64,000 nt of DNA, from the NCBI GenBank assembly GCA_016930235.1, contig JAFGHI010000010.1, positions 250 to 64,249 of the forward strand. The letters run 5' to 3'. How positions within the stretch are numbered: position 1 is the stretch's first letter; every line of letters begins with the position of its first letter. The position numbers and the translations under genes are program-made. The notes below the pieces were generated by a model. That model saw nothing but the letters and a program-made list of their open reading frames with translations. It was not told where the DNA came from and made no database searches. This DNA is from Candidatus Omnitrophota bacterium. GTDB taxonomy: Bacteria; Omnitrophota; Omnitrophia; Omnitrophales; Aquincolibacteriaceae. Shown piece after piece: positions 39,968-58,872 of the stretch.

Positions 39968-42900
39968 TTACGCGGCTTTTTGGATTTGGAGAGCAGCCTG
40001 GACTTCTTGACGCAACAAGCGATCAATCGCGGAAACATTCACAATCGGGCGTCCCTCGGAATCAAAAACAATAATCTGATTTTCGGGTCCTTCTCCCATT
40101 TGCCGAAAGAGATAAACGGCTTTGAGGAGTTCGGCTTGGACATTCTTAGCATCTGTTGAAGTCCTGGCCATTAAAGCAGAGGCAAACGCGAACGCCGTTT
40201 GAGTCATCCTCCCCAAAACTTGAGATTCTAATTTAGCTTCGCTTGTAAGGCGAATGCCGACCGGCAGAACCTGAGCCGTCTGCTCCATAAGAATTTCATC
40301 GCTAAACTCCATGACGGGCAGGACATTCTGTCCCGAATTTAGGATGGTCACCTGCCGGGGACTGGATGCCGCCGTAAAGGGAATCGGTATCGACTTTAGA
40401 ACTTGGATTAAAGCATTGGCGGCCTTTTTATCGCCGAGAATAGCAAAGCGATCCAATTCTCCCCGCAGGAAATAGGACCGGATGATATCCCCGTATTGTC
40501 CGATCGCGCTTTCACGATCCAACCTCGAGATCCCATCTTTTAATTCAGGAATATCCAGCCCCAAAGTTACCTTGCCTTGATAGGTATCTGCCACCTGCTG
40601 CATGAAAGTTACAAGATCCCGAACCGCCCGTTCCGCAATTTTCGACGTCATGCTATAAACTTCAGGCCTGTCTTCAAAAGCTGTGCCGAATCCTTGACGG
40701 CTTAAAAGTTCTTCGACGGCAATTTCGACAGCCCGCTTGAGAACCTGTTCCAGTTCCGCACCGTCAATTTGATGCGCGACGATCGGTCGCACGGCTGAAA
40801 GCACCTCCGATTGATCAGGCAAAACAAAATCTGCGGCTAATGCTTCGGCCGGAATCAAGGATCGCGCAATCGTTAAAGCACTGTCCACCCAAGTTAAGCG
40901 GAGTTCCGAACGGGGTTCCATCGGTGTGCCGTAAAGTTCCTCGGGCGTCCATGTTCCATCCCAGCCCTCCGGTTTCTTCATCACCGCAAGTTTTTTCAAA
41001 GCAGGCTCAGGTTTGGGTTTTGCCTGCAGCAGAGATTGTCCTTGCTTCTGTAAGCGAATCTGCTGCCAAGAGGCAAGCGGAAGCATAATTTCGATCTTCC
41101 CTATCCCGGGTAAAAGCGGGTTCCGAAGATGATACTCGATTTGGACCCCCGAGTCGGCCGCAATTCCGACCAGAACTTCCGTAAAGATCTCAAAGGCATC
41201 CCAAAGAGGATTGCTTACGCGATAACCTTCGCTCATTTGAGGACGCTCGGGTAGGGGTAAATAAACGCTCACACCCTGCTGCATATCCGGTCTCGATTTA
41301 ACAAGTTCAAAAAGACGAAGAAATTGTTCCCGGTAAGATGCCTCGTTCCACCCACCCTCATTAAAATCCGCAATGCCTTTCTCGGGATAACCCGCAATAT
41401 CCTGATCCAGGGCATCCAGCGTCATGACGCGCGGAGCAGGAGGTTTCGCGGTTCTTTTATACTCCTCGGCAAAAGTCGAAGCCGCCTTTTCTCCCATAAC
41501 AACAAACCGTTCATTTTGTCTCAATAACCCTTTTTCATACAAGATATCAAAGACCTCGCGAATCGGCATTTCTTGCCTTAATTCCGAGCGAACTTCTTCA
41601 GTCTGGGGGATTCCGGGACCCCGGAAAGACTTCGTGGCAACAAGATAATGATATTGCCGGTTATCATCCAGAAGGGTTCCGCGCTGAACATCAGACCATT
41701 TGAGGGCCTTAAACGCTTGGAGATCGCTTACTGTGAAGGGTTCCTCTTGAATGGAAATAAAACGGCCCCCCGGATTCAAGACAAGCCAGGCAACATCCGT
41801 CTCATTTGTTTCAACCACCGTTCCCTTAGTCAAAATTGAAAAGACAATATCCTGACTCTCTTTCCATTGAGGATTTTGATACTGGCTTAAATCACTTTCT
41901 CCGGTTAGAACAACCGTCTTCTCAGTTCCTGTCAATCCCAAGAAAGAGTTTAAGGAATCACGCAATCGGGATCCGATCGAAATATCAACCGTGCCGCCAA
42001 CTTCGGAAACTTGAGAGGTTTCGGACAATCCGGGCTGTTGTTGGTAGGGTTGCTGCCTTTGAGGTTGTTCTGCGGGAACTCGCTCCACTTCCGGAACAGG
42101 CTGAACAGCATCAGGAGAAATACTCTTCGCCTGCACCTGAGATGAAATATCGCTGATCTCACGTAACTCCGAACGCGGGCGCTGCCTTCGCGCAATCTTA
42201 AACCTCTGAAACACGTTCCCCTGCAAAATCCTATCCTGAATGGTGTTCTGCAACCGGCTCACCGCTTGATCAAACTCATCAACCGATGGCATCTGTTCTC
42301 CGCCCGCCAAAATCCGCTCAACGAGGGGCTTGATCTGTGATTCAATTTCCTCTGGTGTCGTATTCCGGACAAATTCCAGCATCTCCGGGACCTGATTCGT
42401 CTCAGCCACCTGGTAAACTTCAATCTCCGGCCGTATCAAGCGTAAAGCCAGAAGGGCCAAGAGCAAACGCCTGGAACCACCCCACACACCGTCAACTGTT
42501 ACCCACTTGCCTTTTGAATTCATAGAAGCCGCCACTTCCGCAATCTTTCCGACCAGATTCGGATGAAGCTGTCTAAGTTTCTTTTGCGCCTTTGGATCAT
42601 CGCGCCCAACCTGATTAATCGAAACCATTAAGTCATTTGACCCGACAGCATAAAAATCCGCATCGGGAGATATCATGGCATTCTCCTTCTCAAACATAAA
42701 ACCAATAAGGATCTGATTAATAATCTGACGCGCCTTTTCTTGCTCTTCTTCGACAATCCCGCTTAAATACTCCGTTTTAGCCTCCTCAATTAATTCAAGG
42801 ATACCGTTTATGTCTCTCTGATCAATAATATCCGGAATAAGAATATGCAAATTGACTTCGGGCTGCGGCCCCTTTCCTTCTCGCGCAAGTTCTTCTAAAC

Positions 42901-45900
42901 GATTATAAGCAGCAACCTGAGCCTGAAAAAAAACCATCAGCTGCATTTTGCCGAATTCCCGAAACTGTTTGAACAAGTCTCCATAATGTGGGTGAGTGCC
43001 TTCCTTATCCAAATAGAAACGAACACCCAAACGGTTGCGCCCTTCTTCTAAGGGGATCTCTAAAATCCTTCTCACCTCATCTGGTTTTCTCCCTTCGGTA
43101 AGGATCTTCGGGCGTTTGTCCATCTGAACATCAAAAATTCTCACAATAAAAGGCCGCCTTACCTGGAAAAAAGGCTGCATGAGAATCCCTTGGATTGTCT
43201 GTGCGAATCGGACCCGGTCATTTTCAATCCCCTGCCATCCGGGATGGGCCGCCAATTGCTCGGTTCGAAAAAGTCCGACACCCTTTCCACCGTGACGCTC
43301 AACAATCGACCGCAGTTCGGCCCGCCTCTGAAAATCCTCAGGTTTCGTATCATCCACATAAAATAAAATCTCCCGACCCGCAAAGAAAACCGGCTCATCG
43401 GCCCGGGCAAGAAAAAAGGCATCTAAATCAGCATAACTTTCCCTCCTTGCAAACCATGTATCCCGCGTTTGGTAATCAGGTCTCAACACAACGAACCCCT
43501 CACGGCCATCAGCCATGGCCCAACCCTGAAGTGTTTCCTTGGAAAATTCTAACCCGGCAGCTTCAAAATCTGCAGCCGGTATCACTACAATCCCCAAATC
43601 CCGGGCGAAGGTCACCCAATGTGACAAGCTTGTGCCACCCGGGCTCACAATCGCAACAACCCTTCCGTGACCACGCAAAGAACTCAAAAGATGGTAAAGA
43701 TCCCGCTCATTCTCAATAGTCTTCGCGAACACCACCAAATCACGATCGACTTGTTGGGTTGGGCCAAAGCGTGCACGGTCGTAATAACGCATGAGAAATT
43801 CAAGCGCCTCAGGTTCAACATCGTTGACACGCCTGCCCTCACCGCCCCTATTATCCGCATAAGCATTGAACATAGGGATCATGGTTTCCTGAAAATAACT
43901 GATGATGCCAGCTTGAAAAGGATCGTCTGGCTGAATTCTCTCCCATTGGCCACTGCGTATCTCATCCAAAACATTCTGAAAAACCTCTGCGGCATGCTGC
44001 CGGTTCTCACGAACCCGCCGTGAGATCTCGTCAAAAATCATCCGCAAAATCTCCTCAACGGCATGCTGCTGCTCCTCGCCAACCCATTGCCTGATCTGCG
44101 TGACAACTCCCGGAGGGAGGAATTCCATTTCAGCGGGCACCTCCCCTTCAAGGGGCATCTCTAACACTATTTTTTTATGTCCCTCCCAGAATCTTTCCAG
44201 GACTCCAGCCTCATTTTCAAACGTCTGTTGGGCCCTTAAATCCATAAAATGGCGCATATAGAACAATGCCGTGAGATATTCGATAGACCGGCCGGTTTTT
44301 AAAATATCCTGGCGTACCTGAAAGTCAAATCTCTTCACCCATGCTTTCCATTTTTCGATGTTTGTATGTGCCTCTTCATGCAAGGTCCGATCAACGGCTG
44401 CAATGCTGGCTTCGTCTTCTTTCTTTTTAACCATCGCGCTGATTCTCTTTTGAATTTCCGCCTCATAAGATGCCGTAATGGCATCTAGAAATTGATCCAG
44501 AACATCAACCATAACCTCTTCGTGCCGGCGAACTTCCTCTTCTTTTTTTACCTGAACTTCTTCCTCAAGATCACTCATCTCAAAAATATAGTCATACGTA
44601 TCCAAATCTTCTTGGATGCTTTCAACATACCCTCGAAGCTCTTCATTCACTTGAATCATGCGTTTAAAAAGTTCACCACTGGGTAAATTACGGAAATTTG
44701 CAATATGTGCGTTGAGAAGGTCAATAATAATTTGAAGGGCTTTTTGAGGCGTTTTCCCCTTATCAAGGTGGTAAGCCAAGCGCTCAAAGACATCCATCTT
44801 GATCGTCTTAGGCCTGCCATGTTCATCGATTGTCATACCATAGACTGTATTATCAGCAAACATCCTACGCCTCGTATAGGAAGCTTCTTTCTGACCGTCC
44901 GCAAGCTTAGAATCGTCTGTATTCAAACCAAAAGGCAAATTCAGGAACAAATCAAATACTTTGGTCATCAACCGGTCTTTGGCGGTTTGGATTAAGACTT
45001 CGCGGACTTTTTTATTATGATCCTCGTCGGGTAAATGGATAAAATCCTCCCGATTGACAAGGGCAGGGATCACCGACCCCTGAATAAAACCCATGGCATA
45101 TACCGTCGTCGGGGCAGGAGCCGTTTGTTCTGCCAACTCCCGTTTCATTTCGTCAAGCATTTGCCTTAAGACTTCATCACTTCGGCTCTCTTGATGGCGG
45201 ACCCGATAAATAGCCTCTTCAAGAAGAAGCCCTAAAACTTCTTGCATTTGTTCCCCTAAAGACATCTGGCGCTCACTCTCATCCAAAACGCGCCGCCAAA
45301 TATTTGTTAATGCATGGACTTCATTTTCAACCTTTTGGGCAGCTTCCCGTGGCGTATCAAAAGGGCGGACAAGCGAGAAATTCACGCGCTTGGCTTCCCT
45401 TTCCCAAGTAACTATTTCACCCGAGGCAATAACATTCATCGCCGGCGAGGATCCCCGAAGGATCAGATTGTTAGGTCCTGTTCGAAGCTCGGAGCGTTGT
45501 GATTTAGATTCCGCCTGCACCGGGACTGACGGGACATCGACATAACGTTGATGGATAGCAAACTGCTGGAGGTGATGTATCAAAAGTTCGATTCTCCACC
45601 GCCAAGAACGGATGACTTGATAAGACAGCGTTACGGCAATCGCTGCCATCAGGGTTAGAACCGAACAGGACAAAGCAAAAGGAATATTCCCTTCATCCCA
45701 AGAAATTGCCACACGAATTAAAAAAACAATGCCTGCCATAGCCGTCATACTTCCCACTAAGAACCAACGAAATCCGGCCGCAAAAATCGAATTATACAGC
45801 ATGTCTTCATCCAACACGTCGACCACTTCTTGAATTCTTTCTTGGATATTCAAATCTTCATCCTCCAGAATTTCTGTGATTTCAGCATCATTGGATAGGC

Positions 45901-48900
45901 GCAACCACAAATCCCGATAAACGGGATTGTTGATTTTTTGATCGAGCCAACCCGCAAATTCCCCGCGAAGACCTGTGAGATCTTCATCGCGAAATTCTGA
46001 ACGCAAGTTAACACCGGCGGCATCATCACCCGCCCATCTCAACATGGGCTCACCTGATTTCCTTTGTGCAATTTCAAGCCCCCCATTCCCCCAAGTAAAG
46101 AAAATCCCTTTCCACCACAAAGCAAGAGAAGAAACCAAAGCGAAATCCGCAAGAGCACTCGTTAAAAGATTATTCGATGAAGGATACTCCCGGACTTTTT
46201 CGATATCCCCGATTGCAAAACCTCCGCGCTTTAATAAATCCCGCTTAATCGAATTAACTTGGTAAATTTCTCTCCGTCCCTGAAACTCTTCACCTGGAGC
46301 AGGAGATCTCTTGATATCCTCGTAGTAATAATTCGGCGCTTTCTCTAAGGTCAAATCCAATCCGCCATTTTCGGCAATGGCTTTCTGTAATTCCATGGGA
46401 AGCGAAGATAATTCCTCAATCTGTTCACCGCCCAAAAAGTAAACTGTCCGAAGTTTCTCCCGACCTTCCTCCGGATGCCGCCACACAAAAGATATTGTCC
46501 AACGGTCCCTACCAAGCTCTAAGCGGTTAATCGTATAATCACGCACACCTAGTTCTTCTAAACTCATTAAGAAAAGGGTGCGAATATTGATGCCCAGAAA
46601 ACTCATTGTCAAGATGCCGTGAACGCCGCCCTCATCAACTCGCGATGCATGAACTCGTTCCCGTAAAAGGGGCTGATATTCCTCCCCTTCCTCAGAAACC
46701 TTCTCACCGAAGGTAGCCTGATCACTCATGATAAGCTGCGTTGCGTTCGTCGTAAAAAGAGCACGAATAACATCGAATCCCGAATTAAAATACCAGGCAA
46801 ATTTTTCTTCATTCTTCCGGTTGACCTTGGAGCGAATGGCATCCAAAAATTCATATTCACTAACCCGCATCCACTCGCTGTAGTCATGGGCGCGTCCTTC
46901 ATGGATCCAAGCCGCATCCGAAGTAATGGCCGGCTCCGCCCGCGCAGGCTTTCTTAACTCCGAACGGCCGAGAGATTTGCCGGCCACCGCCGGAACTTTC
47001 GTCTTCTGAATCTGCCGAGCGACAAGATTCCAGACCGTAAATTCATCGAGTTCAGATGTAAAAATTATCCGACGGCCGCCGTCGAAAACCAAAGGTTCAG
47101 CGGCCTTAAGCAAATAAGTGTTGTTGGCAACAACGTTGCGGACGGCCCGGATGTACCCCATAAAATGATCACTCCTCGCAGCAGATTGGGCTTGAGGGCT
47201 GCTGTTATAATAATTAGCCCAATAAAGAATTTGATCATTGTTCCCCTTTGGGAGCGGCACCGGGATAAGAAGGTACTTGATCCGCGCAAGAAAGACTGCG
47301 GCGGCGGGATGAACTTTTAAATACTCTTGGAAGTCGCGGGAACTTGCTTCTTGGCCGGACGCAAACCACCTGAGTGTTACCTCATCGACATCATAAAAAA
47401 TAGGCATGGCCATGGCGGTCCAGTCCTCACGCCCCAAAACCCGACTCAAGAGATATTCCGCCGATCCAGGTTCACCTCCATAGAATTCGTCGGTCTGCAA
47501 TTGATCGGACTCCACCACAAGGGTCCGGGTCAAAAGTTTTTGGATATTCTCCCGGTATTCGGGTGATTCCTCTGAATCCGTCAACGCCAGAACAGCATCG
47601 ACGATTTGAACAAGCGGAATGAGACGGGTTTCAAAGTCTAGTGCGTTTTTATCGATCTGAAGGCGGAGATTTTGATCCATCGGCGTAAGGGCAGTGACAT
47701 GTTCTTCTAAAGGCTGCTCTTCTTGAGGAGAAACTTCTAATGGAATTTCAAACGGTTTCGTAACAGCTGGCGTTTGCGGCACTACCGTTACGTCTGCTGG
47801 AGCTCCAGCCTCAAGAGGAGCCTGATCTAAGGGAGCAATAATGATGGAAGAGGGTTCTTTGACCGTACCCGCTGCAACTCTCGAAATTTGCCTATCGATG
47901 ACCAACACAAATCCAAACGCAAGAACCGCCAACATATATCCCGTGAATATATCGAAAACACGTTTCCCCGAACGATAAAACCAGTTCGTTCCCAATAGAA
48001 GAATTCCGCTCCCCGCAGCAAGAACGAAAACCGCCAGCAAAGGAACACCGAGATGGTGTCCAAAACGGACGATCATCGCCGAAGCCATCGTGAGTGAAAG
48101 AACCGTCATCAAACTTGATACTAAAAAATGTCGAACATTTTCCCAATCAATGATTCGCTTTAGCATCCTGAACTGGTCCGCTCTAAGTTCCGAACGTTCA
48201 CTTGTCTCAAGAGAAGACGTCTTTTCGATTTCTTGACGGACAAGACGCCAAACTTCGAATTCTTCAAGATCGCGCGGCAAAACCGCAATTCCATCGATCT
48301 CGATGGGTTGAGTTACGCTTAACGGATAACTCTTCCCCGCCACCTTTGCGCGGGCCGCTTTAATAATTGCGCCAAAGTTATCCACTTTGGCCGCCCGTTT
48401 AGCTTTTGGACTTCCGTTGTAGTAGATGGCCCAATAAAGAATTTGTTCATTTTCACCAAAAGGAATGGGCGAGCGAAAAAGCCGATATTTGACCCGAGCT
48501 AAAAAGATTGAAGCTGCAGGATGGGTGCGCAGATATTCTCTCAATTCCCGTGAACTTTTGTCCTTGCTCGACGCAAATCGCCGGATCGTCGTTTCATCCA
48601 CATCATAAAAAACACGTTGGACAATAGCCTTCCAATCCGCCCGCTGTAAAATCCGGGTCAAAAGATATTCCGCCGTTCCGGACCCGTCTCCGATATTAAC
48701 TTCAACGTTGGCCACACCCGCCCCGGGGCCTCCCCGATATTGTTCGTCGGCCCGCAGTTGATCCGATTCCACCACAACGGTTCGGGTAAGAAGCTTACGG
48801 ACATTTTCCCGGTATTCCGGCGATTTATCGGAATCTATGAGTGCTACAATTGCGTCAACAATCTTAACGAGAGGAATCAAGCGGGTTTCAAAATTCTTGG

Positions 48901-51900
48901 CGTTTTTATCGATTATAAGGCGGAGGTATTCATCAATCTGTTCATCGGTGAGAGCCGCCTTTCCAATACTGCTCTGCTCCCCTTGCAGAACCCGCTTTAC
49001 GGCTTCAATCACATTCGGTTCGGGAATATCACGAATGGGGGCAACGGGTGCTGCTTTTTCAATGGAGGCAGGTGCTATTTCCGGAGGAGGCCTCGGGGCT
49101 TCAGGCGTAGTTGTTCGGCTTATTCCGACTTCCTGTCGAGCTTGGACATCCCTAACATCCTTCATATGCAGGAACGATACGACTCCAAAGGTGAGAACAA
49201 AACTTAAAAGGCCTACCATGATATTCGAAAAGCGCTCACCCAATTTGAGTTTCCTGCCGGTAAAATAAAGGAAATACGCAAAACCGGCCAAAAGGAAAAA
49301 AACAGCCGCCGGAGAAACTCCCAAGTCGTATATGGCTGGAATACCCAAGACCGGCACACCGAATAAAACAGATAAATCAAAAACCAAAGACGCCAGGTAT
49401 TTCGTCAGCCGGATATCCCATGATTCTTTTTTAGCGATTGCTTTTTCCGCCCGCAGCTCGGATCTCTGTAATGGTCCAAAAATCGCATCAACTTTTTCCC
49501 TTATAACACCGGCATAAGCAAATGCCTGGAATTGATCAAATACCCCCAATCGTTTCGCCGCGTTATAAGCCGGCACATGCACTTTACCCACCTTGTCACT
49601 TACAAGTATGAGAAACATTTCTTGTTGATACATAAAAGCAGAGCCTTTAAAAATTTTAGCCATGAGAACAGCGCCCACCATAAAATCGCCCCAAAGCTCT
49701 CCCCATTGGACCACAACCTCGGGAGTAATTGCTTCATCCGTAAAAATAGCCTCCATCAAATCCATAGCACCTGAAAGCTTTCCTAAAACCTCAACGGACC
49801 AACTATAATCTAGCGCCTGCGCTCTTAGGGCCTCATTGTCAGAAGCAAGGGAGTAATTCATCAACATCAAAAGGGTATTAGCCGCACTGACTCGAATTAG
49901 CGGCATTGCAGTTCCATCCCCTACGAGATCACGCAAATCATTCATCACCTGAAGCGCATCCATACCACTTTGACTTAAAGCCAAACCTCTGCCGGTCAAT
50001 TCACGCAAGGCATCTTGCCGCGCCTTCACATCGATACCCTTGTTTTTCGCATTCGCAAGCAAATCCTGAATCTCCGCCCGCAGTTCGGAGCGGGTATCTG
50101 CGGAAACTGCTTCTACTTCTCCTCGGCGCAGTTTGCCTTCATAAATCAAAACACGGGCTTGGAGAGGATTTAATCGATGAATTGCATCAAGGGCTTTGGG
50201 TAAAATATCAAGCCATTGGAGCGTTTTTCCGGCCCTCTTGATGCTAATTCGTCGCTCATAGAGTTTGGCATCCGGCCATGTCTCCCACTCGGCAATCCTT
50301 TCCAACGTATCCTGCACCCACATCTCGGGATTAAAACCAAAAATTAAACTCTCCGTTTGTTCTTCAATTTCGTTACGCGATAATTCCATAGCAGCTTGGA
50401 TTCGACCTTGGAGGCGTTCCTCAATGGATTGGATTTCGATCACGGCTGCATCCACATTTGGGTTCATCGCATAGATACTCCCTCCCAAAATATTGGTAAC
50501 TTGGACAAGATTGATCTGTAATCTTTGTAAACTTGTAAGCTCCCTGACGTCATCATCACGGACATCCCCTTCAAGATGAGTCCCTAAGACACGCAGCTGA
50601 ACCAAGACATCCGGCAGAAGAGCCCCGTTTAACTGATCGATTCTTTCTGCAATCGCCGCACCCTCTGTAAGCTCCTGCTCGAGAACCCGTTGAAGCCGGT
50701 CAATAGCCACATCCGCATTGATCAATGCAAGAAAATAATCGTTGATAAGCGATTGCCTTAATTCTGAACGGCCCGACACAAGCACCGACTCACGCATCCT
50801 GGCTTCAACCATCAAGTTGCGCAGTGTTTGCTCTAATTGTTTAACTTCCGCCGGGTCTTTAGAATCAAGATACGGCATCATCAATTCCGAAAGCTGGACC
50901 ATGCGGTAAATCGCAAAAAGAAGATCTGGCATATCCATCTCTTGGATGGCCTGTTTTGAAGGTAATCGCGTTACTGCCTCTTGAATAACGGACTTCTCGA
51001 TTGGCTTATCATCACCAATGTTGGCCACTGCTTTGATCTGCTCAAGCCAAAGGTCCAGGACTCCTCTCACATTATCCAAGATCGCTATTTTCTCCTCGAA
51101 AGCAGGCTCTCTTTGATAAAAGCTCATCTTTGTAAGATCACTCAATGCTAAATTAAACTGGCTTATCTTTCCGGACAGTCTTCGCAAAAACCAGTAAAGA
51201 GCACCCGCGTCAACAACGTCTCCTTGTATCCCGTCCCACAAAAGATTCATGACAAGCACGATTGATTGAATCACCCCGTGCAACCGGGTCTCTGTTAGCT
51301 CTTTCTGGTATTGCCGGGCCTCCTCATCCATGATGATCTTCTCCCCGATTGCCTTGTCAGCCAAAGTGAGCTCCTCCCCGATGATCTTCATGGTTTCTAA
51401 ACCGTTTACCACAAATGCTCTCCGACTTTCCGTCTGACTGAGATCAATCGCCGATGCCCCCTTGTCAACGGACATAAAACCTTGCTTCTGAAACTGAAGA
51501 ATCCTCAACGAGAGAACCCTCGAACGAAGCTTCGCGGCGTAGCTTCCGATAATTTCCATCTTTGCCTTAAGGGCTGCACTCGTCGCCCCTAAAGGCATCC
51601 GTGAGCCTCTGGATAGAGTTTCCAGGCACATAATCAACCCCTCAAATCCTTCAATCAACGGAATTTCACTTTCATGAACCGGAACCGGCGGTTCCCCTAA
51701 AAGTTGGTCAAAAACACTCAAAGCATCCAGAACACGAGTCAGATGCGGCTCAAACATACCCTGTAACATCTGCAGGATGAGCGGATCGCTTAGATTCTGC
51801 CGGCTAAAAGACATCGTCGCATCTAACGCTAATCGCGAGGATGAAAGTGCTCTCGCTAAATGCCGGGCCATTTGCTGGCTCGTCATACTCCGCAGTTCAG

Positions 51901-53959
51901 AGCGACCGGGGACTTGATCTAGGGTATCAATTTGGACCGGGATCCCCTGCAATCCACTAGGAACAACACCTTCTGATACTAAACGGCGTTCAACACCTAA
52001 GTGAGGCAAAACACCTGCAGGAAGTTTGGAAAGGTTAATGGCATCGCCGGCCGCAAGAACGGGGTAAGTAAAACCATCGGAGGTCGTGGCTGTCTGGAGA
52101 AGATTCAAGATATTTTGTTCGGTGAGGTCGCCTTGGGCGTCCAGATCGCGGATCCCTTGAATGAAACGTTCGATATTCTGAAGCCATTTTTGACGGAGTT
52201 TTTGGATGCTTTCTTCATCCAGGATTTCATCGATAAAGAGGGTATACTTCCCTGCTTGATCTAATCTCTTTTGGCCTGCCAAATCTCGGACAATTTGATC
52301 ACGCCAATGTTTTAAAAGGGTGCCGGGGTCTTCACCGCTTTCCTCAACCAGCTTATCGCGAGTCGAACGGATAAAGGCTTTGTAAATATTGATTCGGTCA
52401 TTCTCGACCCGGAAATACCCTTTCCAAGCCACCTCACCCCGCATATTTTGGCGGTAACTCGTTTCATCAGGAACCGAACTGATTCTTGGCATTACCAGAA
52501 CATAAGAAATTCCCTCTTGGCGGAAACGCTCAGTCAAACCTTCGGTATGAAAACCGCCAGCGATTAGGACACTGGAACTGTGTGAAGAGTAAAGAGTATC
52601 TCGTGAAGAGCTGCTCTGCATCTTTTGAATCAAATTTTGGTAAAAAGCCTGATCACGCGCTTCGGCTGTTTGATAAAAAGCGATGTGATGTTTTAAATCG
52701 TCTTGTCCCAGAGGGATTTCCTCAAATTCTTGACCTTGGATTATAGTTTCGATACGTTTCCAATCCTCATAGCCGATATTCAATTTTGCGAGCCTCGTAA
52801 GGAGATCCAGATGAAGGCCTCTGCGGTTAAGGTCCCGTTCAAGGTCAGTTCGGTAGAATTTCTCCTTCACGGATTCTGTATACGCCTGGAATTCCTTAAA
52901 AAGCCTTGTGCCGCGAAGATCCTTCATCCTCAGCTGATTTTGCATAAGGGGCTTAAGAGTGTTTGACACTTCAAGAGAAATCCCCTTTTCTTCGATGAGC
53001 TCCTTCATGAATAGCGCAAAGGCTTCGGGAGTTATTTGGGATATCTGAAAGGCCTGCCGTTTTTTATGAAAACGTTTAAGGTCCTCACGCCCGCCATTTG
53101 TCGAATCACCTTGATGCAAGAAATCCTCGACTTTTTCGGCAAGGGCCATGACTTCCCGGTCTAAATGAACGCGGTCCACGAATTGATTTTCGTATTCCCC
53201 CAAAATCAAATCGAGCTCGGACCCTTTGGCCAGCTTCTGATAATTTGAAAGTTTCTTCAGAACGGTTATGAAGGTTTCCAAATTTTCACCAAAATCCTGA
53301 AGCAAGCGATCGATCGCGAGAAGTTCTTCGGGATACGTGTTTTGTTTTTCTTCTTGAAGCCCTTTTTCCGCAATTGAAATTCTCCGGAGGAAGTCTTCTT
53401 CTTTCCCTGCCGCCTGAAGAAAATAGGCCAGCCCTTGTTCATAGAGATCCCAATTCTCAATCCCCTCATATTGGCCCTCGACATGGTTAAGAATCGCGGC
53501 AGCCGTACTTCCTGTAAGCTCCCCTTTTTCGTGATAATCATTTAATACCTTTTTTAATAATTCCTGATCCGGAAAACTTCTGAGGATCTGAGGATCCAAT
53601 CGGCTAGCAGCACCTTCTAAAGCGATGAGGTCCACACCGTAAGTCTCTTGAAAATATCCGATAAGCCTTTGAATATTTAGCTGAGCTTCAGGAATAGCGT
53701 GGGCATCTTGAATAAGGACAACGGTCTGATCGTTTTGGCCTTGATACCTTTCAAGAACCTCTCCGATCTTTTCCGGGATTTCGATCTTTGAAATTTCAAA
53801 GGGTATAGATTTCTCTAATTTTTTGTCAGCCAAAGGTAAGAGATTTCCCGAGGCGTATACAGGCAAACTTAGATGGTTCGTCACAAAGAAAGTCATGACG
53901 ACTATTAAAGCCACTGATTTAATGAGTGTAGACCTCTCCTGCATGAAGTCTCCCTTCAT
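39968..53959 (-). CDS. giant (4663 aa) secreted/multi-pass membrane protein with internal duplication, embedded PEP-utilizing phosphotransfer module and ten RSELR motifs
   Basis: A single uninterrupted 13,992-nt ORF. It has an N-terminal signal peptide (…LSLPVYA|SG) and hydrophobic TM clusters near aa 1425-1455, 1521-1600, 1945-2025, 2603-2625 and 2722-2785. Aa 3430-3500 resemble a PEP-utilizer phosphohistidine swivel domain (GGTSLSHWVTFARDLGIVVIP). Aa 3555-3800 resemble the PEP/pyruvate-binding TIM barrel (GVGLFRTEQL ... GSNDLMVSINQVGRDD). The second ATG at 53944 has the better SD (AAGGGAG). Confidence 0.85.
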   Translation of the reverse strand: MKGDFMQERSTLIKSVALIVVMTFFVTNHLSLPVYASGNLLPLADKKLEKSIPFEISKIEIPEKIGEVLERYQGQNDQTVVLIQDAHAIPEAQLNIQRLIGYFQETYGVDLIALEGAASRLDPQILRSFPDQELLKKVLNDYHEKGELTGSTAAAILNHVEGQYEGIENWDLYEQGLAYFLQAAGKEEDFLRRISIAEKGLQEEKQNTYPEELLAIDRLLQDFGENLETFITVLKKLSNYQKLAKGSELDLILGEYENQFVDRVHLDREVMALAEKVEDFLHQGDSTNGGREDLKRFHKKRQAFQISQITPEAFALFMKELIEEKGISLEVSNTLKPLMQNQLRMKDLRGTRLFKEFQAYTESVKEKFYRTDLERDLNRRGLHLDLLTRLAKLNIGYEDWKRIETIIQGQEFEEIPLGQDDLKHHIAFYQTAEARDQAFYQNLIQKMQSSSSRDTLYSSHSSSVLIAGGFHTEGLTERFRQEGISYVLVMPRISSVPDETSYRQNMRGEVAWKGYFRVENDRINIYKAFIRSTRDKLVEESGEDPGTLLKHWRDQIVRDLAGQKRLDQAGKYTLFIDEILDEESIQKLRQKWLQNIERFIQGIRDLDAQGDLTEQNILNLLQTATTSDGFTYPVLAAGDAINLSKLPAGVLPHLGVERRLVSEGVVPSGLQGIPVQIDTLDQVPGRSELRSMTSQQMARHLARALSSSRLALDATMSFSRQNLSDPLILQMLQGMFEPHLTRVLDALSVFDQLLGEPPVPVHESEIPLIEGFEGLIMCLETLSRGSRMPLGATSAALKAKMEIIGSYAAKLRSRVLSLRILQFQKQGFMSVDKGASAIDLSQTESRRAFVVNGLETMKIIGEELTLADKAIGEKIIMDEEARQYQKELTETRLHGVIQSIVLVMNLLWDGIQGDVVDAGALYWFLRRLSGKISQFNLALSDLTKMSFYQREPAFEEKIAILDNVRGVLDLWLEQIKAVANIGDDKPIEKSVIQEAVTRLPSKQAIQEMDMPDLLFAIYRMVQLSELMMPYLDSKDPAEVKQLEQTLRNLMVEARMRESVLVSGRSELRQSLINDYFLALINADVAIDRLQRVLEQELTEGAAIAERIDQLNGALLPDVLVQLRVLGTHLEGDVRDDDVRELTSLQRLQINLVQVTNILGGSIYAMNPNVDAAVIEIQSIEERLQGRIQAAMELSRNEIEEQTESLIFGFNPEMWVQDTLERIAEWETWPDAKLYERRISIKRAGKTLQWLDILPKALDAIHRLNPLQARVLIYEGKLRRGEVEAVSADTRSELRAEIQDLLANAKNKGIDVKARQDALRELTGRGLALSQSGMDALQVMNDLRDLVGDGTAMPLIRVSAANTLLMLMNYSLASDNEALRAQALDYSWSVEVLGKLSGAMDLMEAIFTDEAITPEVVVQWGELWGDFMVGAVLMAKIFKGSAFMYQQEMFLILVSDKVGKVHVPAYNAAKRLGVFDQFQAFAYAGVIREKVDAIFGPLQRSELRAEKAIAKKESWDIRLTKYLASLVFDLSVLFGVPVLGIPAIYDLGVSPAAVFFLLAGFAYFLYFTGRKLKLGERFSNIMVGLLSFVLTFGVVSFLHMKDVRDVQARQEVGISRTTTPEAPRPPPEIAPASIEKAAPVAPIRDIPEPNVIEAVKRVLQGEQSSIGKAALTDEQIDEYLRLIIDKNAKNFETRLIPLVKIVDAIVALIDSDKSPEYRENVRKLLTRTVVVESDQLRADEQYRGGPGAGVANVEVNIGDGSGTAEYLLTRILQRADWKAIVQRVFYDVDETTIRRFASSKDKSSRELREYLRTHPAASIFLARVKYRLFRSPIPFGENEQILYWAIYYNGSPKAKRAAKVDNFGAIIKAARAKVAGKSYPLSVTQPIEIDGIAVLPRDLEEFEVWRLVRQEIEKTSSLETSERSELRADQFRMLKRIIDWENVRHFLVSSLMTVLSLTMASAMIVRFGHHLGVPLLAVFVLAAGSGILLLGTNWFYRSGKRVFDIFTGYMLAVLAFGFVLVIDRQISRVAAGTVKEPSSIIIAPLDQAPLEAGAPADVTVVPQTPAVTKPFEIPLEVSPQEEQPLEEHVTALTPMDQNLRLQIDKNALDFETRLIPLVQIVDAVLALTDSEESPEYRENIQKLLTRTLVVESDQLQTDEFYGGEPGSAEYLLSRVLGREDWTAMAMPIFYDVDEVTLRWFASGQEASSRDFQEYLKVHPAAAVFLARIKYLLIPVPLPKGNNDQILYWANYYNSSPQAQSAARSDHFMGYIRAVRNVVANNTYLLKAAEPLVFDGGRRIIFTSELDEFTVWNLVARQIQKTKVPAVAGKSLGRSELRKPARAEPAITSDAAWIHEGRAHDYSEWMRVSEYEFLDAIRSKVNRKNEEKFAWYFNSGFDVIRALFTTNATQLIMSDQATFGEKVSEEGEEYQPLLRERVHASRVDEGGVHGILTMSFLGINIRTLFLMSLEELGVRDYTINRLELGRDRWTISFVWRHPEEGREKLRTVYFLGGEQIEELSSLPMELQKAIAENGGLDLTLEKAPNYYYEDIKRSPAPGEEFQGRREIYQVNSIKRDLLKRGGFAIGDIEKVREYPSSNNLLTSALADFALVSSLALWWKGIFFTWGNGGLEIAQRKSGEPMLRWAGDDAAGVNLRSEFRDEDLTGLRGEFAGWLDQKINNPVYRDLWLRLSNDAEITEILEDEDLNIQERIQEVVDVLDEDMLYNSIFAAGFRWFLVGSMTAMAGIVFLIRVAISWDEGNIPFALSCSVLTLMAAIAVTLSYQVIRSWRWRIELLIHHLQQFAIHQRYVDVPSVPVQAESKSQRSELRTGPNNLILRGSSPAMNVIASGEIVTWEREAKRVNFSLVRPFDTPREAAQKVENEVHALTNIWRRVLDESERQMSLGEQMQEVLGLLLEEAIYRVRHQESRSDEVLRQMLDEMKRELAEQTAPAPTTVYAMGFIQGSVIPALVNREDFIHLPDEDHNKKVREVLIQTAKDRLMTKVFDLFLNLPFGLNTDDSKLADGQKEASYTRRRMFADNTVYGMTIDEHGRPKTIKMDVFERLAYHLDKGKTPQKALQIIIDLLNAHIANFRNLPSGELFKRMIQVNEELRGYVESIQEDLDTYDYIFEMSDLEEEVQVKKEEEVRRHEEVMVDVLDQFLDAITASYEAEIQKRISAMVKKKEDEASIAAVDRTLHEEAHTNIEKWKAWVKRFDFQVRQDILKTGRSIEYLTALFYMRHFMDLRAQQTFENEAGVLERFWEGHKKIVLEMPLEGEVPAEMEFLPPGVVTQIRQWVGEEQQHAVEEILRMIFDEISRRVRENRQHAAEVFQNVLDEIRSGQWERIQPDDPFQAGIISYFQETMIPMFNAYADNRGGEGRRVNDVEPEALEFLMRYYDRARFGPTQQVDRDLVVFAKTIENERDLYHLLSSLRGHGRVVAIVSPGGTSLSHWVTFARDLGIVVIPAADFEAAGLEFSKETLQGWAMADGREGFVVLRPDYQTRDTWFARRESYADLDAFFLARADEPVFFAGREILFYVDDTKPEDFQRRAELRSIVERHGGKGVGLFRTEQLAAHPGWQGIENDRVRFAQTIQGILMQPFFQVRRPFIVRIFDVQMDKRPKILTEGRKPDEVRRILEIPLEEGRNRLGVRFYLDKEGTHPHYGDLFKQFREFGKMQLMVFFQAQVAAYNRLEELAREGKGPQPEVNLHILIPDIIDQRDINGILELIEEAKTEYLSGIVEEEQEKARQIINQILIGFMFEKENAMISPDADFYAVGSNDLMVSINQVGRDDPKAQKKLRQLHPNLVGKIAEVAASMNSKGKWVTVDGVWGGSRRLLLALLALRLIRPEIEVYQVAETNQVPEMLEFVRNTTPEEIESQIKPLVERILAGGEQMPSVDEFDQAVSRLQNTIQDRILQGNVFQRFKIARRQRPRSELREISDISSQVQAKSISPDAVQPVPEVERVPAEQPQRQQPYQQQPGLSETSQVSEVGGTVDISIGSRLRDSLNSFLGLTGTEKTVVLTGESDLSQYQNPQWKESQDIVFSILTKGTVVETNETDVAWLVLNPGGRFISIQEEPFTVSDLQAFKALKWSDVQRGTLLDDNRQYHYLVATKSFRGPGIPQTEEVRSELRQEMPIREVFDILYEKGLLRQNERFVVMGEKAASTFAEEYKRTAKPPAPRVMTLDALDQDIAGYPEKGIADFNEGGWNEASYREQFLRLFELVKSRPDMQQGVSVYLPLPERPQMSEGYRVSNPLWDAFEIFTEVLVGIAADSGVQIEYHLRNPLLPGIGKIEIMLPLASWQQIRLQKQGQSLLQAKPKPEPALKKLAVMKKPEGWDGTWTPEELYGTPMEPRSELRLTWVDSALTIARSLIPAEALAADFVLPDQSEVLSAVRPIVAHQIDGAELEQVLKRAVEIAVEELLSRQGFGTAFEDRPEVYSMTSKIAERAVRDLVTFMQQVADTYQGKVTLGLDIPELKDGISRLDRESAIGQYGDIIRSYFLRGELDRFAILGDKKAANALIQVLKSIPIPFTAASSPRQVTILNSGQNVLPVMEFSDEILMEQTAQVLPVGIRLTSEAKLESQVLGRMTQTAFAFASALMARTSTDAKNVQAELLKAVYLFRQMGEGPENQIIVFDSEGRPIVNVSAIDRLLRQEVQAALQIQKAA
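46952..48181 (-). repeat. giant-gene internal duplicated unit, copy 2 (aa ~1927-2336)
   Basis: Has the same TM cluster (HHLGVPLLAV / FGVPVLGIP; FYRSGKRVFDIF / FTGRKLKLGERF), Pro-rich linker and soluble module (NALDFETRLIPLVQIVDA...ILYWANYYNSSP...). It also ends in RSELR. Confidence 0.8.
48182..49450 (-). repeat. giant-gene internal duplicated unit, copy 1 (aa ~1504-1926)
   Basis: The unit is a TM cluster, a Pro-rich linker and a ~240-aa soluble module (NAKNFETRLIPLVKIVDA...ILYWAIYYNGSP...) ending in RSELR. It is paralogous to copy 2 at both protein and DNA level (e.g. ccaataaagaatttg at 48431 and 47221). Confidence 0.8.
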
Positions 53960-54232: not shown

Positions 54233-54880
54233 TTAAAATCCCTGTTCGATCAGCTTGGAGAGCTTCAATTGGGTGCTTTTACGCGGCTTCAATTCGTCCG
54301 ATAAGATCTTGAGATACCTCGTAATGAGGTCAATTTCCAGATTCACAGGGTCCTTCACCTTTTTCCTGCCTAAGGTTGTCTCTTTCAAGGTATGAGGAAT
54401 AATCGCAATCTTGAACCGGTTACCTTGGACGCCCTGAATTGTCAAACTGATCCCGTCAACCGCGATGGACCCTTTATGGGCCAGTAATTTCGTGACTGCC
54501 TTGTCGGCTTGAAACCAAAAGATCCAGTTCTTCCCTCGTCGTTCAATCTTCGTAATGATCCCACGGCCATCGACATGTCCTGTCACAAAATGACCTCCGA
54601 GAGGATCTCCTGCTCGAAGCGATCTTTCGAGATTGAGGAAGCTGCCGATACGGAGTCCTCCTAATGTTGTTGCCGCCAAGGTTTCTTTAACAACATCCAC
54701 CTCGAAATATTTCGAAGTCGCTTTGACAGCCGTCAGACAAACACCTTCGCAAGCAATACTTTCACCGATCTCTAACCGCCTTTTCGCTTTCCTCTGAAAT
54801 CCGATCCGAAAACGGACAATGCCGCCCGTTTCGGTTTTCTTTAAGACCTTCCCTTGATTTTGGATAATACCTGTAAACAT
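54233..54880 (-). CDS. ribE: riboflavin synthase (alpha subunit)
   Basis: 215 aa with the duplicated lumazine-binding repeats MFTGII ... GHVDG. Confidence 0.88.
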   Translation of the reverse strand: MFTGIIQNQGKVLKKTETGGIVRFRIGFQRKAKRRLEIGESIACEGVCLTAVKATSKYFEVDVVKETLAATTLGGLRIGSFLNLERSLRAGDPLGGHFVTGHVDGRGIITKIERRGKNWIFWFQADKAVTKLLAHKGSIAVDGISLTIQGVQGNRFKIAIIPHTLKETTLGRKKVKDPVNLEIDLITRYLKILSDELKPRKSTQLKLSKLIEQGF

Positions 54881-54896
54881 GTAAAGCTCCTCTCTT

Positions 54897-56045
54897 CTAT
54901 CGAATATTCTTTAATGATGCCTTGATTTTTCCTACAAAATGCCAATCCTCACCTAGCTTTTCAACATGATCGATCTCGCATTCAATTCCATCATCCGGAA
55001 GTCTGAATCCTTCTCCCTCGACGGACGTTTTTGCACTGCGCCCTCCGATCAATTTTGGCGCGATAAGCCAGTGAATTTTATCGACATGTCCCCCTTCCAA
55101 AAGCGACCAGGCCAGTTCCCCGCCCCCTTCACAAAGCAACTTGGCAACCCCTAAAGACGCCAACTTCTTCAACAAATCATCGAGATCTAATTTCCCGTCT
55201 TTGTCATGGACAGGAAGAAGAACCTTTCCTTGCTTCGATTTTTCATGAGAACGTCTCTGCACCAATGTCTTCTCACTGACAGCGAGCAAGGTTAATTGCT
55301 CGCCCTTAAAAATATTCGCCTTTGGCGAAACCTCGAGATTCGGATCGATCACAACGCGCCAGGGTTTGCCTTCGATCTGATTCCTCACCTTGATCCGGGG
55401 ACTCAGGTTCGGATTGTCCTTAAGCAAGGTATTCTTCCCGATCAGGATTGCGTCTTGTTCAGCCCTGAGTTCGTGAACAAAACGCCTGGCCGGCACCGAA
55501 GTTATCCATCGTGAGGCCCCTGTCTTTGTCGCAATCTTCCCGTCCAAGGATTGGGCCATTTTGAGAACCACAAAAGGTTTCCGACTGCGGATAAATTTAA
55601 AAAACGACTCATTCTGTTTTTCGACCCGCCCCGCCAAAACACCTGTCTTGACTTTCACGCCGGCTTTTCTTAACGCCTTCACTCCTTTGCCGTGATGTTT
55701 GGGGTTCGGATCCAAGGCCCCGATCACTACCTTTTGGATACCGGCATTCAAAATAGCCGCAACGCACGGAGGCGTTTTCCCCCAGGTCGAACAGGGCTCT
55801 AACGTCACGCATAAAGTCGCCCCTTTGGCTTTTGAACCTGCACGTTTTAAGGCCGCGACTTCGGCATGATCACCGCCAAAAAACCGGTGATAGCCCTCTG
55901 CGACAATCCTGTTCTTTTTCACTACGCAAGCCCCAACCATCGGATTGGGGCTGACCGTCTTTCTCCCCTTTTCGGCAAGATGTAGAGCTCTTAGCATCCA
56001 CTTTTCGTCCGTTGAAAGATAGCCGGTTTCAGACAGGAGATGCAT
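54897..56045 (-). CDS. ribD: bifunctional diaminohydroxyphosphoribosylaminopyrimidine deaminase / 5-amino-6-(5-phosphoribosylamino)uracil reductase
   Basis: A CMP/dCMP deaminase motif (HAEVAAL ... PCSTWGKTPPC) is followed by a RibD_C reductase domain. The start is likely MHLLSETGYLSTDEKWMLRAL. Confidence 0.88.
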   Translation of the reverse strand: MHLLSETGYLSTDEKWMLRALHLAEKGRKTVSPNPMVGACVVKKNRIVAEGYHRFFGGDHAEVAALKRAGSKAKGATLCVTLEPCSTWGKTPPCVAAILNAGIQKVVIGALDPNPKHHGKGVKALRKAGVKVKTGVLAGRVEKQNESFFKFIRSRKPFVVLKMAQSLDGKIATKTGASRWITSVPARRFVHELRAEQDAILIGKNTLLKDNPNLSPRIKVRNQIEGKPWRVVIDPNLEVSPKANIFKGEQLTLLAVSEKTLVQRRSHEKSKQGKVLLPVHDKDGKLDLDDLLKKLASLGVAKLLCEGGGELAWSLLEGGHVDKIHWLIAPKLIGGRSAKTSVEGEGFRLPDDGIECEIDHVEKLGEDWHFVGKIKASLKNIR

Positions 56046-56481
56046 CCGATTCATTTGTTGAAACCTGATAGCGGGGTTTTTCAGAATGGTTGATCTTATC
56101 GAGGATGCCGTTGACAAATTTCCCGGAATCTTCCTGGGAAAATTTCTTGGCCATATTCACCGCTTCGTTGATGGAAACTTTCTGAGGAACATCTTCCAAA
56201 TAAAGGAGTTCATAAGTCGCAGCACGCATGATGTTTTTATCAACCACCGCCATTCTCCCAAGTTCCCAATTCTCGGCCGCGTTCGAGATGACCTTGTCAA
56301 TCTCCTGCTGATTCTGGAGGGTGCCTTTCACTAAAACTTCTGCAAATTCCTGAACTTCCTTGGCAGGCTGACCCTGATGGCTCCAGAAATTTTCTATGAT
56401 CTCGGAGAGCTTCCCAGGATTCATTTCAACCTGATACAGAATCTGAAGCGCATATTCGCGCGCAAGCGTCCGTTTTCTCAT
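56029..56481 (-). CDS. nusB: transcription antitermination factor NusB
   Basis: A 150-aa NusB fold (REYALQILYQVEMN...). Confidence 0.85.
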   Translation of the reverse strand: MRKRTLAREYALQILYQVEMNPGKLSEIIENFWSHQGQPAKEVQEFAEVLVKGTLQNQQEIDKVISNAAENWELGRMAVVDKNIMRAATYELLYLEDVPQKVSINEAVNMAKKFSQEDSGKFVNGILDKINHSEKPRYQVSTNESDASPV

Positions 56482-56987
56482 CTTTTGTTTTTCACCCGGC
56501 GTTGCCGGCCCTTCACACGCGTGTTCTGATCCATCTGCCGGTTTAAATCAGCAATCTCAATGGCTGCCAAGGCCGCATGAGCCCCTTTGTTCCCGGCCTT
56601 AAGTCCCGCCCGGTCGATGGCCTGCTCAAGCGTGTCTGCGGTAATCACAGCCGTTGCAATCGGTATACCGGTTTCCAACGCCACCTGCGATATCCCGCGT
56701 GTGACTTCGTTGCATACACATTCATAATGATAAGTCCCGCCTCTTAAAACACAACCCAATGCAATGATGCCGTCCAATTTCCTAGCCGCCAGCTTCTTAC
56801 AAAAGTACGGAATTTCTAAAGCCCCCGGCACCCAAGCAACTTCAATATCTTTTTGAGAAACCCCGGCCTGTTCTAAAACCTCCACGGCACTTTCAAGCAA
56901 GCGCTTTGTAATGAATTCATTAAACCTGGCAACGACAATAGCAAAACGCTTTCCGTCTCCTTTTAAGTTCCCGCGGCGTATGATCAT
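56478..56987 (-). CDS. ribH: 6,7-dimethyl-8-ribityllumazine synthase
   Basis: RFAIVVARFNEFIT is the lumazine synthase signature. The start is MIIRRGNL at 56987, adjacent to the ribBA stop. Confidence 0.88.
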   Translation of the reverse strand: MIIRRGNLKGDGKRFAIVVARFNEFITKRLLESAVEVLEQAGVSQKDIEVAWVPGALEIPYFCKKLAARKLDGIIALGCVLRGGTYHYECVCNEVTRGISQVALETGIPIATAVITADTLEQAIDRAGLKAGNKGAHAALAAIEIADLNRQMDQNTRVKGRQRRVKNKR

Positions 56988-56988
56988 C

Positions 56989-58200: not shown

Positions 58201-58210
58201 AACCGCTCCT

Positions 58211-58249
58211 AAAAATAAAAATCCCGAAAATAGAAAATCTATCTTCGGG
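58211..58249 (-). terminator. intrinsic terminator hairpin of the FMN riboswitch expression platform
   Basis: On the minus strand, CCCGAAGATAGATTTTCTATTTTCGGG is followed by ATTTTTATTTTT immediately upstream of the ribBA SD. Confidence 0.65.
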
Positions 58250-58428
58250 TTGATGGATACACGACGCAAATTGTCTTCTTCTCCCGTCCGGACTTTACCG
58301 TCGGCACCTGAATTCCACAGGTTCAGTTTTCCTGAATACTCTCAAGAAAAGTCGCGGGCTTTCACCGCCGGTCTGGATTTGTGCTTTCCTAAATCCTTTA
58401 CGCACTCACCATGCCCCGAAGATTGGCC
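58250..58428 (-). promoter_or_regulatory. FMN riboswitch (RFN element) aptamer
   Basis: On the minus strand, ...TCTTCGGGGCATGGTGAG...GGCGGTGAAAGCCCGCGAC...GGAATTCAGGTGCCGACGGTAAAGTCCGGACGGGAGAAGAAG matches conserved RFN blocks (GGTGAAA.TCCC ; CCGACAGTGAAAGTCTGGATGGGAGAAGGA). Confidence 0.75.
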
Positions 58429-58718: not shown

Positions 58719-58872
58719 TTCTGAAAAAGGCAAACCCGGAGTAATCCGGGGACGTCCCGTCAAACTGCTCGCGCAGCTTGAGGGACTGCGTCATCCCTTC
58801 GGGGATGATCGTAGCAAAGCCACAGACCCCGTAAAAACTCAAGTTTATGCGGGGTGGCTGGGTTACCAAATC
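58719..58872 (+). promoter_or_regulatory. c-di-GMP-I (GEMM) riboswitch aptamer, copy 2, with ~60-nt insertion
   Basis: The same conserved blocks are present (GGCAAACC, CCCGGA GTAA TCCGGG, CAAAGCC, GGTTACC). A compensatory change in the P3 stem (CCCCGTA/TGCGGGG versus CCCGTA/TACGGG) supports RNA structure. An insertion forming two hairpins (CGCAG...CTGCG ; CATCCC TTCG GGGATG) sits between GGGGACG and CAAAGCC. Downstream, CCTCA...TGAGG can occlude the GAGGGGAGGA SD. Confidence 0.65.

Follow-up and report, generated by a model that had tools for sequence, protein, structure and literature searches.

Viral polyproteins (picornavirus 3C, potyvirus NIa) are cut at short repeated sites, and long surface precursors such as RgpA, Kgp and HagA of Porphyromonas gingivalis and the adhesins of Mycoplasma are cut at defined residues or motifs and contain internally duplicated modules. 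Giant proteins of 30,000–85,000 amino acids (aa), the 'Archaeovorins' and Dockerin-type proteins with C39/S8 peptidase and SecA-like domains, have been described from the Omnitrophota; their authors suspect proteolytic processing and state that the cleavage points are unknown, which blocks structural and functional dissection (bioRxiv 10.1101/2023.11.21.568195). Here we report on a shorter giant open reading frame (ORF) located on a 64,000-nucleotide (nt) stretch of a Candidatus Omnitrophota metagenome-assembled genome (MAG; assembly GCA_016930235.1, contig JAFGHI010000010.1, positions 250 to 64,249; hereafter the window). Eleven copies of a pentapeptide, RSE[LF]R, divide its product into twelve cassettes (C1 to C12), two of which, C5 and C6 (units 1 and 2; Table 1), form an adjacent and diverged pair. 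The explanation that we favor, with a probability of about 0.6, is an ancient in-place tandem duplication of a cassette together with its closing RSELR, within a polyprotein and with both copies bearing tethered lysozyme-like domains.

The locus resembles viral polyproteins in that one ORF carries unrelated proteins in series, separated by a short junction peptide that co-varies with lineage. Unlike them, it is a chromosomal bacterial gene beside a riboflavin operon with no recognized protease cassette, and cleavage at R[SA]ExR is here predicted from sequence. The RgpA, Kgp and HagA and Mycoplasma precursors are a looser parallel: their modules are repeated adhesin domains with a known protease, whereas the cassettes of the present protein are nearly all different and many are cytoplasmic-type enzymes. 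With the 'Archaeovorins' and Dockerin-type giants the gene shares its phylum, a very long ORF with transmembrane (TM) segments, an SLT-like domain (found in some of the giants) and suspected cleavage. It differs from them in length (4,663 aa), in having no recognizable peptidase domain, and in its conserved head (C1), R[SA]ExR delimiters and C-terminal ...KAA tail. No description of this combination of C1 head, R[SA]ExR and ...KAA tail was found in the literature searched, where 'Omnitrophota' combined with 'polyprotein' returned nothing, and a 2026 survey of complete Omnitrophota genomes makes no mention of any motif or of cleavage (bioRxiv 10.64898/2026.06.07.730766). In full-text searches 'RSELR' turned up only in the unrelated PL7 alginate lyases, as their catalytic motif (R[STN]E[LV]R). 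This family was considered and rejected: the giant protein has neither of its companion motifs, QIH and YFKAGxYxQ, and no PL7 Pfam match.

A diverged tandem pair of motif-bounded cassettes

The motif is present in the giant ORF as ten copies of RSELR and one of RSEFR, where 0.014 would be expected from composition. RSE[LF]R was not found elsewhere in the six frames of the window, nor did the relaxed motif pattern match in any other frame. Synonymous codons vary among the eleven copies, which points to selection at the peptide level. Cutting at the motifs yields cassettes of 169–1,107 aa, and an all-against-all BLAST comparison of the twelve found a single similar pair, C5 and C6 (BLASTP 175/397 identities, 44%; E 4e-96).

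An earlier note on this stretch, made by reading the letters, had proposed that one whole RSELR-bounded unit was duplicated in tandem at this place, and our analysis bears this out: the copies are adjacent and in the same orientation, and the RSELR codons fall exactly where the note had placed the ends of the units (Table 1). The common architecture that it described is also present, each unit consisting of a basic N-terminal tail, three TM helices, a Pro-rich tether and a soluble module. Counts of Lys plus Arg are 5, 0 and 4 in the N-tail, first loop and second loop of unit 1, and 4, 1 and 3 in those of unit 2, a pattern that, for each unit taken alone, predicts an N-in/C-out topology.

The similarity of the two units was scored by segment against 2000 shuffles. 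It was strongest in the lysozyme-like core of the soluble module (z = 109) and also evident in the C-terminal extension (z = 21), in agreement with the sequence sharing claimed for this part. For the TM cluster, similarity was seen in TM2–TM3 (z = 8.5); the basic N-tail and TM1, the first ∼40 residues, have no detectable similarity (z = -0.9). The Pro-rich linkers, without significant similarity (z = -1.4), are alike in architecture and composition alone, with 15% Pro in both compared to 4.1% in the whole protein. The extent of the unit, said to be exactly motif to motif, is likewise upheld in part: the C-terminal boundary of the repeat runs precisely into RSELR, and the N-terminal boundary agrees with the motif by architecture but is resolvable by sequence only to ∼40 residues. 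The motifs closing unit 1 (CGTTCGGAACTTAGA) and unit 2 (CGTTCGGAGTTAAGA) agree at 12 of 15 nt and are closer to one another than either is to the motif preceding unit 1 (AGATCCGAGCTGCGG), which fits a duplicated segment that comprised the body of a cassette and the motif that closes it.

At the DNA level the resemblance at a distance of ∼1.2 kb is real and modest, with 53% identity across the codon alignment, a best-conserved stretch of 221 nt at 72% and no exact word longer than 17 nt common to both copies. Several indels separate them, including a loop of 15 codons. Synonymous sites are saturated (proportion of synonymous differences, pS, 0.72; dS ∼2.3), and dN/dS is 0.24 overall and 0.17 in the soluble module. 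The pair is an old, diverged duplication that has been kept under purifying selection.

A twelfth, relaxed match to the motif, RAELR, lies within C9 (43310–43324, minus strand; aa 3546–3550), between the GGTSLSH swivel-His motif and GVGLFRTE of the phosphoenolpyruvate (PEP)-utilising TIM barrel. This internal match is probably a look-alike and not a true junction.

A family of head-bearing giant ORFs

Homologues of C1 were identified among Omnitrophota MAG proteins at 37–42% identity. Residues Q84, D85, H87, E115 and G116 are invariant, and no fewer than 90% of the aligned sequences keep G468, G469, F470 and H471. Where long enough, the C1-like modules end in a motif-type pentapeptide (TRAEAR, GRSEVR, PRAEVR, VRSETR, PRSDIR), beyond which the sequence differs from protein to protein. 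A scan of one genome per species placed the head at no fewer than 268 loci. The best 80 of the 268 (numbered L004–L083), which were fetched, come from MAGs that are either Omnitrophota or unclassified (one bears the label 'uncultured Planctomycetales'), and a single genome often has several of them; motif statistics were obtained from 71 head-bearing ORFs totaling 178,004 aa.

These ORFs contain 246 matches to R[SA][ED][LVIFTAM]R, compared to 7.7 expected and 8–14 in scrambled-order controls. Position 4 of the motif is genome-specific (chi-square p 6e-23), with Leu at 12/12 sites in one MAG and 10/10 in another, and Met at 10/15 in a third; this suggests a trans-acting reader that would co-evolve with its sites. 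By genome, Leu alone occupies the position in JAUYMS01, CAYSSX01 and CAYRBY01, and Met predominates in JBAYGD01.

Autonomous proteins lie between the junctions. A PrmA-like methyltransferase is bounded by two motifs (protein P0023, aa 655–969), a histidine phosphatase (His_Phos_1) falls within one cassette (L017 ORF, aa 1327–1529), and a J-domain begins 24 aa past a motif (L050 ORF, aa 1357–1420) and is thus N-terminal, as in J-proteins; the PEP-utilising domains of C9 and the free-standing homologues of the C5/C6 module (see below) are further cases. The view in the earlier note that the giant protein is assembled from RSELR-bounded cassettes is therefore supported both by the excess of motifs across the family and by cassettes that hold whole ordinary proteins. 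In the MAG JBMONI01 (L003, 10001–22613; L034) the head is a separate gene, of 870 or 1,133 aa, with a giant motif-bearing ORF close behind; in one MAG the giant gene behind a separate head has twelve RAE[VAI]R/RSELR motifs. The split in JBMONI01 could be a natural gene fission or an assembly frameshift.

Complete ORFs of the family share a ∼30-aa C-terminal tail that ends in ...KAA, ...VAA or ...SA (loci L004, L010, L016, L017, L019, L022, L041 and L074), here ...ALQIQKAA (39971–40060), and an [AS]A ending is present in 13 of 16 complete ORFs. Such endings are reminiscent of C-terminal tags for degradation or recognition. In other respects the loci have hardly any cassette content in common: no C5/C6-type cassette was found at any other family locus, and from C2 to C12 only C9 has a homologue in related loci (L077, aa 964–1916). 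The single other intragenic cassette duplication in the 71 ORFs is a 51-aa case in the L056 ORF, where RSEVR-flanked mini-cassettes at aa 1421–1471 and 2715–2765 are 96% identical and non-adjacent. The largest neighbor 'family' around the loci, 66 antisense ORFs in 49 loci, all opposite C1, is probably a shadow of the conserved C1 coding sequence and not a gene.

The soluble module and its relatives

The module shared by C5 and C6 likely belongs, as a divergent branch, to the lysozyme-like superfamily (SLT / phage tail lysozyme). With a C5/C6 profile, HMMER was run exhaustively against 1.84 billion representatives and recovered the query and six remote matches, all to the soluble core alone (P0002 at 7e-11; P0003–P0007 at 8e-5 to 7e-4). 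The link to the SLT superfamily is transitive, through P0007, which scores above the Pfam gathering thresholds of Phage_lysozyme2 (PF18013, 35.8 bits) and SLT (PF01464, 29.1 bits). Seven bacterial proteins of 148–241 aa came up in addition when the search was repeated with the joint alignment. Six of these (∼230 aa) have an N-terminal TM anchor, and one such anchored relative sits in an ordinary chromosomal context. A hidden Markov model (HMM) built from the outgroup sequences only gave C5 76 bits and C6 46.7 bits, indicating that the homology is solid and that unit 2 is the more derived of the two.

Across a 16-sequence alignment the T and E of T..ES are invariant and the following Ser nearly so; ARxKY, PIP and YW/YYxxYYN are also conserved. 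The candidate catalytic residues are Glu1731 in unit 1 (codon 48767–48769) and Glu2150 in unit 2 (codon 47510–47512), both within VVES. Using hhalign, T..ES and G..Q[VI]E fell onto the ES and GLMQ of E. coli Slt, EmtA, MltC and MltD, with a weak E of 0.013. In unit 1 the loop AGVANVEVNIGDGSG (48677–48721) falls opposite the GLMQ of the SLT domains. This second motif has the family consensus G.FQ[VI]E and reads AGVANVE in C5 (N for Q); the equivalent 15-residue loop is missing from C6. Enzymatic activity of the module is predicted from these residues, and catalysis by unit 2 is doubtful.

AlphaFold modeled the soluble part of unit 1 with a pLDDT of 73 and a pTM of 0.70 (core blocks mostly 73–93), while a model of full-length C5 from two sequences was useless (pLDDT 40). 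In a Foldseek search of a viral set, the five best matches to the unit 1 model had a probability of 1.0 and TM-scores of 0.56–0.67 and were unnamed 150-aa phage proteins; weak matches named phage tail lysozyme, LT_GEWL, SLT and GH19 came next.

Membrane-bound lytic transglycosylases / SLT proteins (GH23; PF01464) and phage tail lysozymes (PF18013) have a helical lysozyme-like domain with Glu-Ser followed by G-x-x-Q-[IV], an inner-membrane tether facing the periplasm, and relatives in both phages and bacteria, features that C5/C6 are predicted to share, with the second motif in altered form in C5. However, the C5/C6 anchor consists of three TM helices and a long Pro-rich tether rather than a lipobox or single TM helix, an extra extension of 70 aa is present, the domains are embedded in a giant ORF, C6 is without the second motif, and there is no direct Pfam match. 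The free-standing ∼230-aa proteins (P0008–P0013) are similar to C5/C6 in being products of chromosomal bacterial genes with a basic N-terminal tail, a TM anchor and a lysozyme-like domain; they differ in having one TM helix, no Pro-rich tether and no C-terminal extension, and are 20–23% identical to C5 in the full family alignment. Relatives that do have the C-terminal extension are phage proteins encoded beside HNH and terminase genes. One of them, a 1,034-aa protein by HNH/terminase genes (P0005 / P0030; L088, 10001–13105), ends in the lysozyme-like domain and has three ∼25-aa repeats (GSNNKPINKIIGHHPGWANKxTE..I.SDFTAG.SWT) between TM-rich segments, which may be another delimiter-type repeat.

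A proposed polyprotein, its alternatives and the genomic setting

According to the explanation that we favor, an ancient in-place tandem duplication copied one complete cassette plus its closing RSELR inside a multi-cassette ORF. The cassette would encode an otherwise normal small membrane protein, with a basic cytoplasmic tail, three TM helices, a ∼65-residue Pro-rich tether, the lysozyme-like domain and an extension of ∼70 residues. Its copies have diverged under purifying selection, C5 keeping both T..ES and G..[QN]VE and C6 losing the second. The giant ORF would be a polyprotein in which R-[S/A]-E-x-R serves as the recognition site of a processing factor, most likely a protease, with a specificity that differs from genome to genome. 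Release at the motifs would let each unit insert independently, N-in/C-out, such that both lysozyme-like domains would sit on flexible periplasmic tethers and could cleave or bind the peptidoglycan of their own cell or of a host or prey cell.

Taken alone, the duplication is nothing out of the ordinary in evolution. It nonetheless amounts to a clean natural experiment, in which a whole unit and its delimiter were copied and both copies kept, as would be expected if the segments between R[SA]ExR are functional proteins. It thereby serves as evidence that the motif-bounded unit is the evolutionary unit, and probably the functional one, in an apparently undescribed Omnitrophota giant-gene architecture. 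More tentatively, R-[S/A]-E-x-R may be the cleavage site of a dedicated, genome-specific processing system serving a widespread, multi-copy class of giant ORFs in this phylum. If so, ORFs that run from a C1 head through variable cassettes to a ...KAA tail would each be divided into cytoplasmic, membrane and periplasmic proteins, and bacterial chromosomes would here use polyproteins in place of operons, and C5/C6 would show that cassettes evolve like genes, being duplicated with their delimiter and diverging under selection. A simple delimiter at hundreds of loci would also make the cleavage-point problem tractable through in-silico cutting ahead of structure prediction, targeted proteomics and a search for the protease. 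The module itself adds a divergent branch of membrane-tethered lysozyme-like domains common to phages and bacteria, and bears on cell-wall handling by these ultra-small, possibly host-dependent bacteria.

Several results weigh against this explanation. The dissimilar linkers and first ∼40 residues of the two units have been described above, and word-index, contig and profile searches, together with the related loci, gave no single-copy orthologue by which to polarize or date the duplication (a word-index search with C5 had no match, and genome and metagenome contig scans with the C5/C6 alignment had no relatives). Neither C5 nor C6 matched Pfam or NCBIfam at E<0.1; hhalign probabilities against E. 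coli SLT domains were low; the C5/C6 profile found no solved structure among PDB sequences and Foldseek of the unit 1 model nothing significant in the PDB; and C6, judging from its missing loop, may be inactive. As for processing, no peptidase domain was found in the giant ORF using Pfam and NCBIfam, no protease was identified, and no conserved neighbor gene was found around the 80 loci. The C1 head was considered as the protease, given that its QDAH...EG...GGFH resembles Tiki/ChaN/TraB proteins by eye, and is kept as a lead only. A Tiki/ChaN-like fold is sub-threshold (two distant members match PF04187 at E 0.01–0.04), C1 obtained nothing from NCBIfam, hhalign against the E. coli TraB-family protein YbaP was negative, and the signal-like peptide of C1 means that the head, if a protease, must act before export.

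The alternative that survives best, although we consider it somewhat unlikely, is an uncut multi-pass giant in which R[SA]ExR is an inter-module linker, docking or modification motif and the lysozyme-like modules lie on opposite faces of the membrane. It would accord with the predicted status of cleavage, with the failure to find a protease in cis or nearby, with the giant single-chain surface proteins known in Omnitrophota, and with the RAELR look-alike inside the TIM barrel of C9. The topology of such a chain argues otherwise. Both units have the same positive-inside pattern, yet with an odd number of TM helices per unit the two paralogous domains of an uncut chain would end up on opposite sides of the membrane, and the parity of nine predicted TM segments would make the PEP-utilising cassette C9 extracytoplasmic; an uncut chain would therefore missort a PEP-dependent enzyme and one lysozyme-like domain. 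Also against it are the nature of the cassettes, which represent ordinary proteins in complete form and without relation to one another (a J-domain at a cassette start, a histidine phosphatase, a PrmA-like methyltransferase and a PEP-utilising enzyme), the genome-specific flavor of the motif, which indicates a trans-acting reader, and the MAG in which head and body are separate genes.

A second alternative, which we regard as unlikely, concerns the domains rather than the chain: that both, or the one in C6 at the least, are pseudo-enzymes with a glycan-binding or scaffold role and do not cleave peptidoglycan. The loop missing from C6, the N for Q in C5, a score for C6 that is 30 bits below that of C5 against the family model, and the failure of either cassette to reach a Pfam threshold are all in its favor. 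Yet both units retain the Glu-Ser pair and the remaining residues that are invariant in the family, and the soluble module is under constraint, as indicated by its dN/dS of 0.17, although constraint is no proof of catalysis.

That C5 and C6 were recruited separately, whether from phage or through shuffling among paralogous giant genes, and became neighbors by chance is highly improbable. Cassette gain and loss is implied by the almost completely different content among family members, and the domain has its closest relatives among phage proteins; but the two are by far closest to one another (44% compared to at most 28% to anything else), and they share a whole architecture of three TM helices, tether, extension and similar closing-motif codons. 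They are moreover adjacent, in the same orientation and compositionally uniform, and no other locus has a cassette of this type. GC content and GC3 are even across all cassettes of the giant gene, and a check of composition for foreign origin gave no signal.

The misassembly or recombinational instability raised as possible in the earlier note, whether as one locus doubled by the assembler or as a young repeat prone to collapse by recombination, has next to no probability: tandem repeats are a known source of error in metagenome assemblies and no independent assembly over the C5/C6 junction was found (a Logan contig stops at aa 1417, JGI contigs had no exact match to the junction, exact look-ups of the giant protein gave no further contig, and its protein cluster has one member), but copies separated by indels, with saturated synonymous sites and the identity and dN/dS values given above, are too diverged for an assembler to invent or collapse or for RecA-type homologous recombination to act upon.

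Table 1. Positions in the window of the giant ORF, the duplicated units and their parts.
Feature	Position	Strand	Remarks
Giant ORF, 4,663 codons, 13,992 nt	39968-53959	minus	12 cassettes, 11 RSE[LF]R separators
Cassette C1, aa 1-690	51890-53959	minus	signal/anchor peptide and conserved head module that defines the family
RSELR closing C4 (left boundary of unit 1)	49451-49465	minus	codons AGA TCC GAG CTG CGG
Unit 1 (cassette C5), aa 1504-1926	48182-49450	minus	full architecture, ends in RSELR
Unit 1 TM cluster, helices aa 1522-1540, 1546-1564, 1580-1598	49166-49396	minus	from hydropathy
Unit 1 Pro-rich tether, aa 1604-1671	48947-49150	minus	15% Pro
Unit 1 lysozyme-like core, aa 1672-1853	48401-48946	minus	SLT / phage-tail-lysozyme-like
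Unit 1 C-terminal extension, aa 1854-1921	48197-48400	minus	common to unit 2 and phage relatives P0003-P0006
RSELR closing unit 1	48182-48196	minus	codons CGT TCG GAA CTT AGA
Unit 2 (cassette C6), aa 1927-2336	46952-48181	minus	paralogue of C5, architecture shared, more derived copy
Unit 2 TM cluster, helices aa 1946-1964, 1970-1988, 2003-2021	47897-48124	minus	from hydropathy
Unit 2 Pro-rich tether, aa 2024-2091	47687-47890	minus	15% Pro
Unit 2 lysozyme-like core, aa 2092-2257	47189-47686	minus	15-residue GLMQ-equivalent loop deleted
Unit 2 C-terminal extension, aa 2258-2331	46967-47188	minus	counterpart of unit 1 extension
RSELR closing unit 2	46952-46966	minus	codons CGT TCG GAG TTA AGA
Best-conserved DNA stretch of the repeat, 221 nt	47461-47681		72% identity to 48718-48938, spacing 1257 nt
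Cassette C9, 1,107 aa	42161-45481	minus	PEP-utilizers_C domain (E 7e-16) and a weak mobile-domain match

The giant ORF is flanked by ordinary chromosomal genes, namely the riboflavin operon, a thioredoxin-reductase-like ORF and CbiX. The riboflavin biosynthesis cluster (54233–58269, minus strand) lies directly upstream on the same strand and includes a Lum_binding riboflavin synthase, RibD, and NusB-like, RibH-like and RibBA-like members. About 5 kb upstream of the giant gene, an ORF at 58854–59501 (plus strand) has transglutaminase-like / BTLCP cysteine-proteinase (Peptidase_C93) matches and is not conserved beside related loci. The giant ORF corresponds to NCBI MBN1687848.1, from a Candidatus Omnitrophota MAG, and differs from that record in the chosen start codon alone: translation could begin at the ATG at 53959 (MKGDFMQERS...) or, as in the NCBI record, at Met6 (53944), and either start is followed by a signal-peptide-like segment at aa 12–34 (...PVYA/SG).

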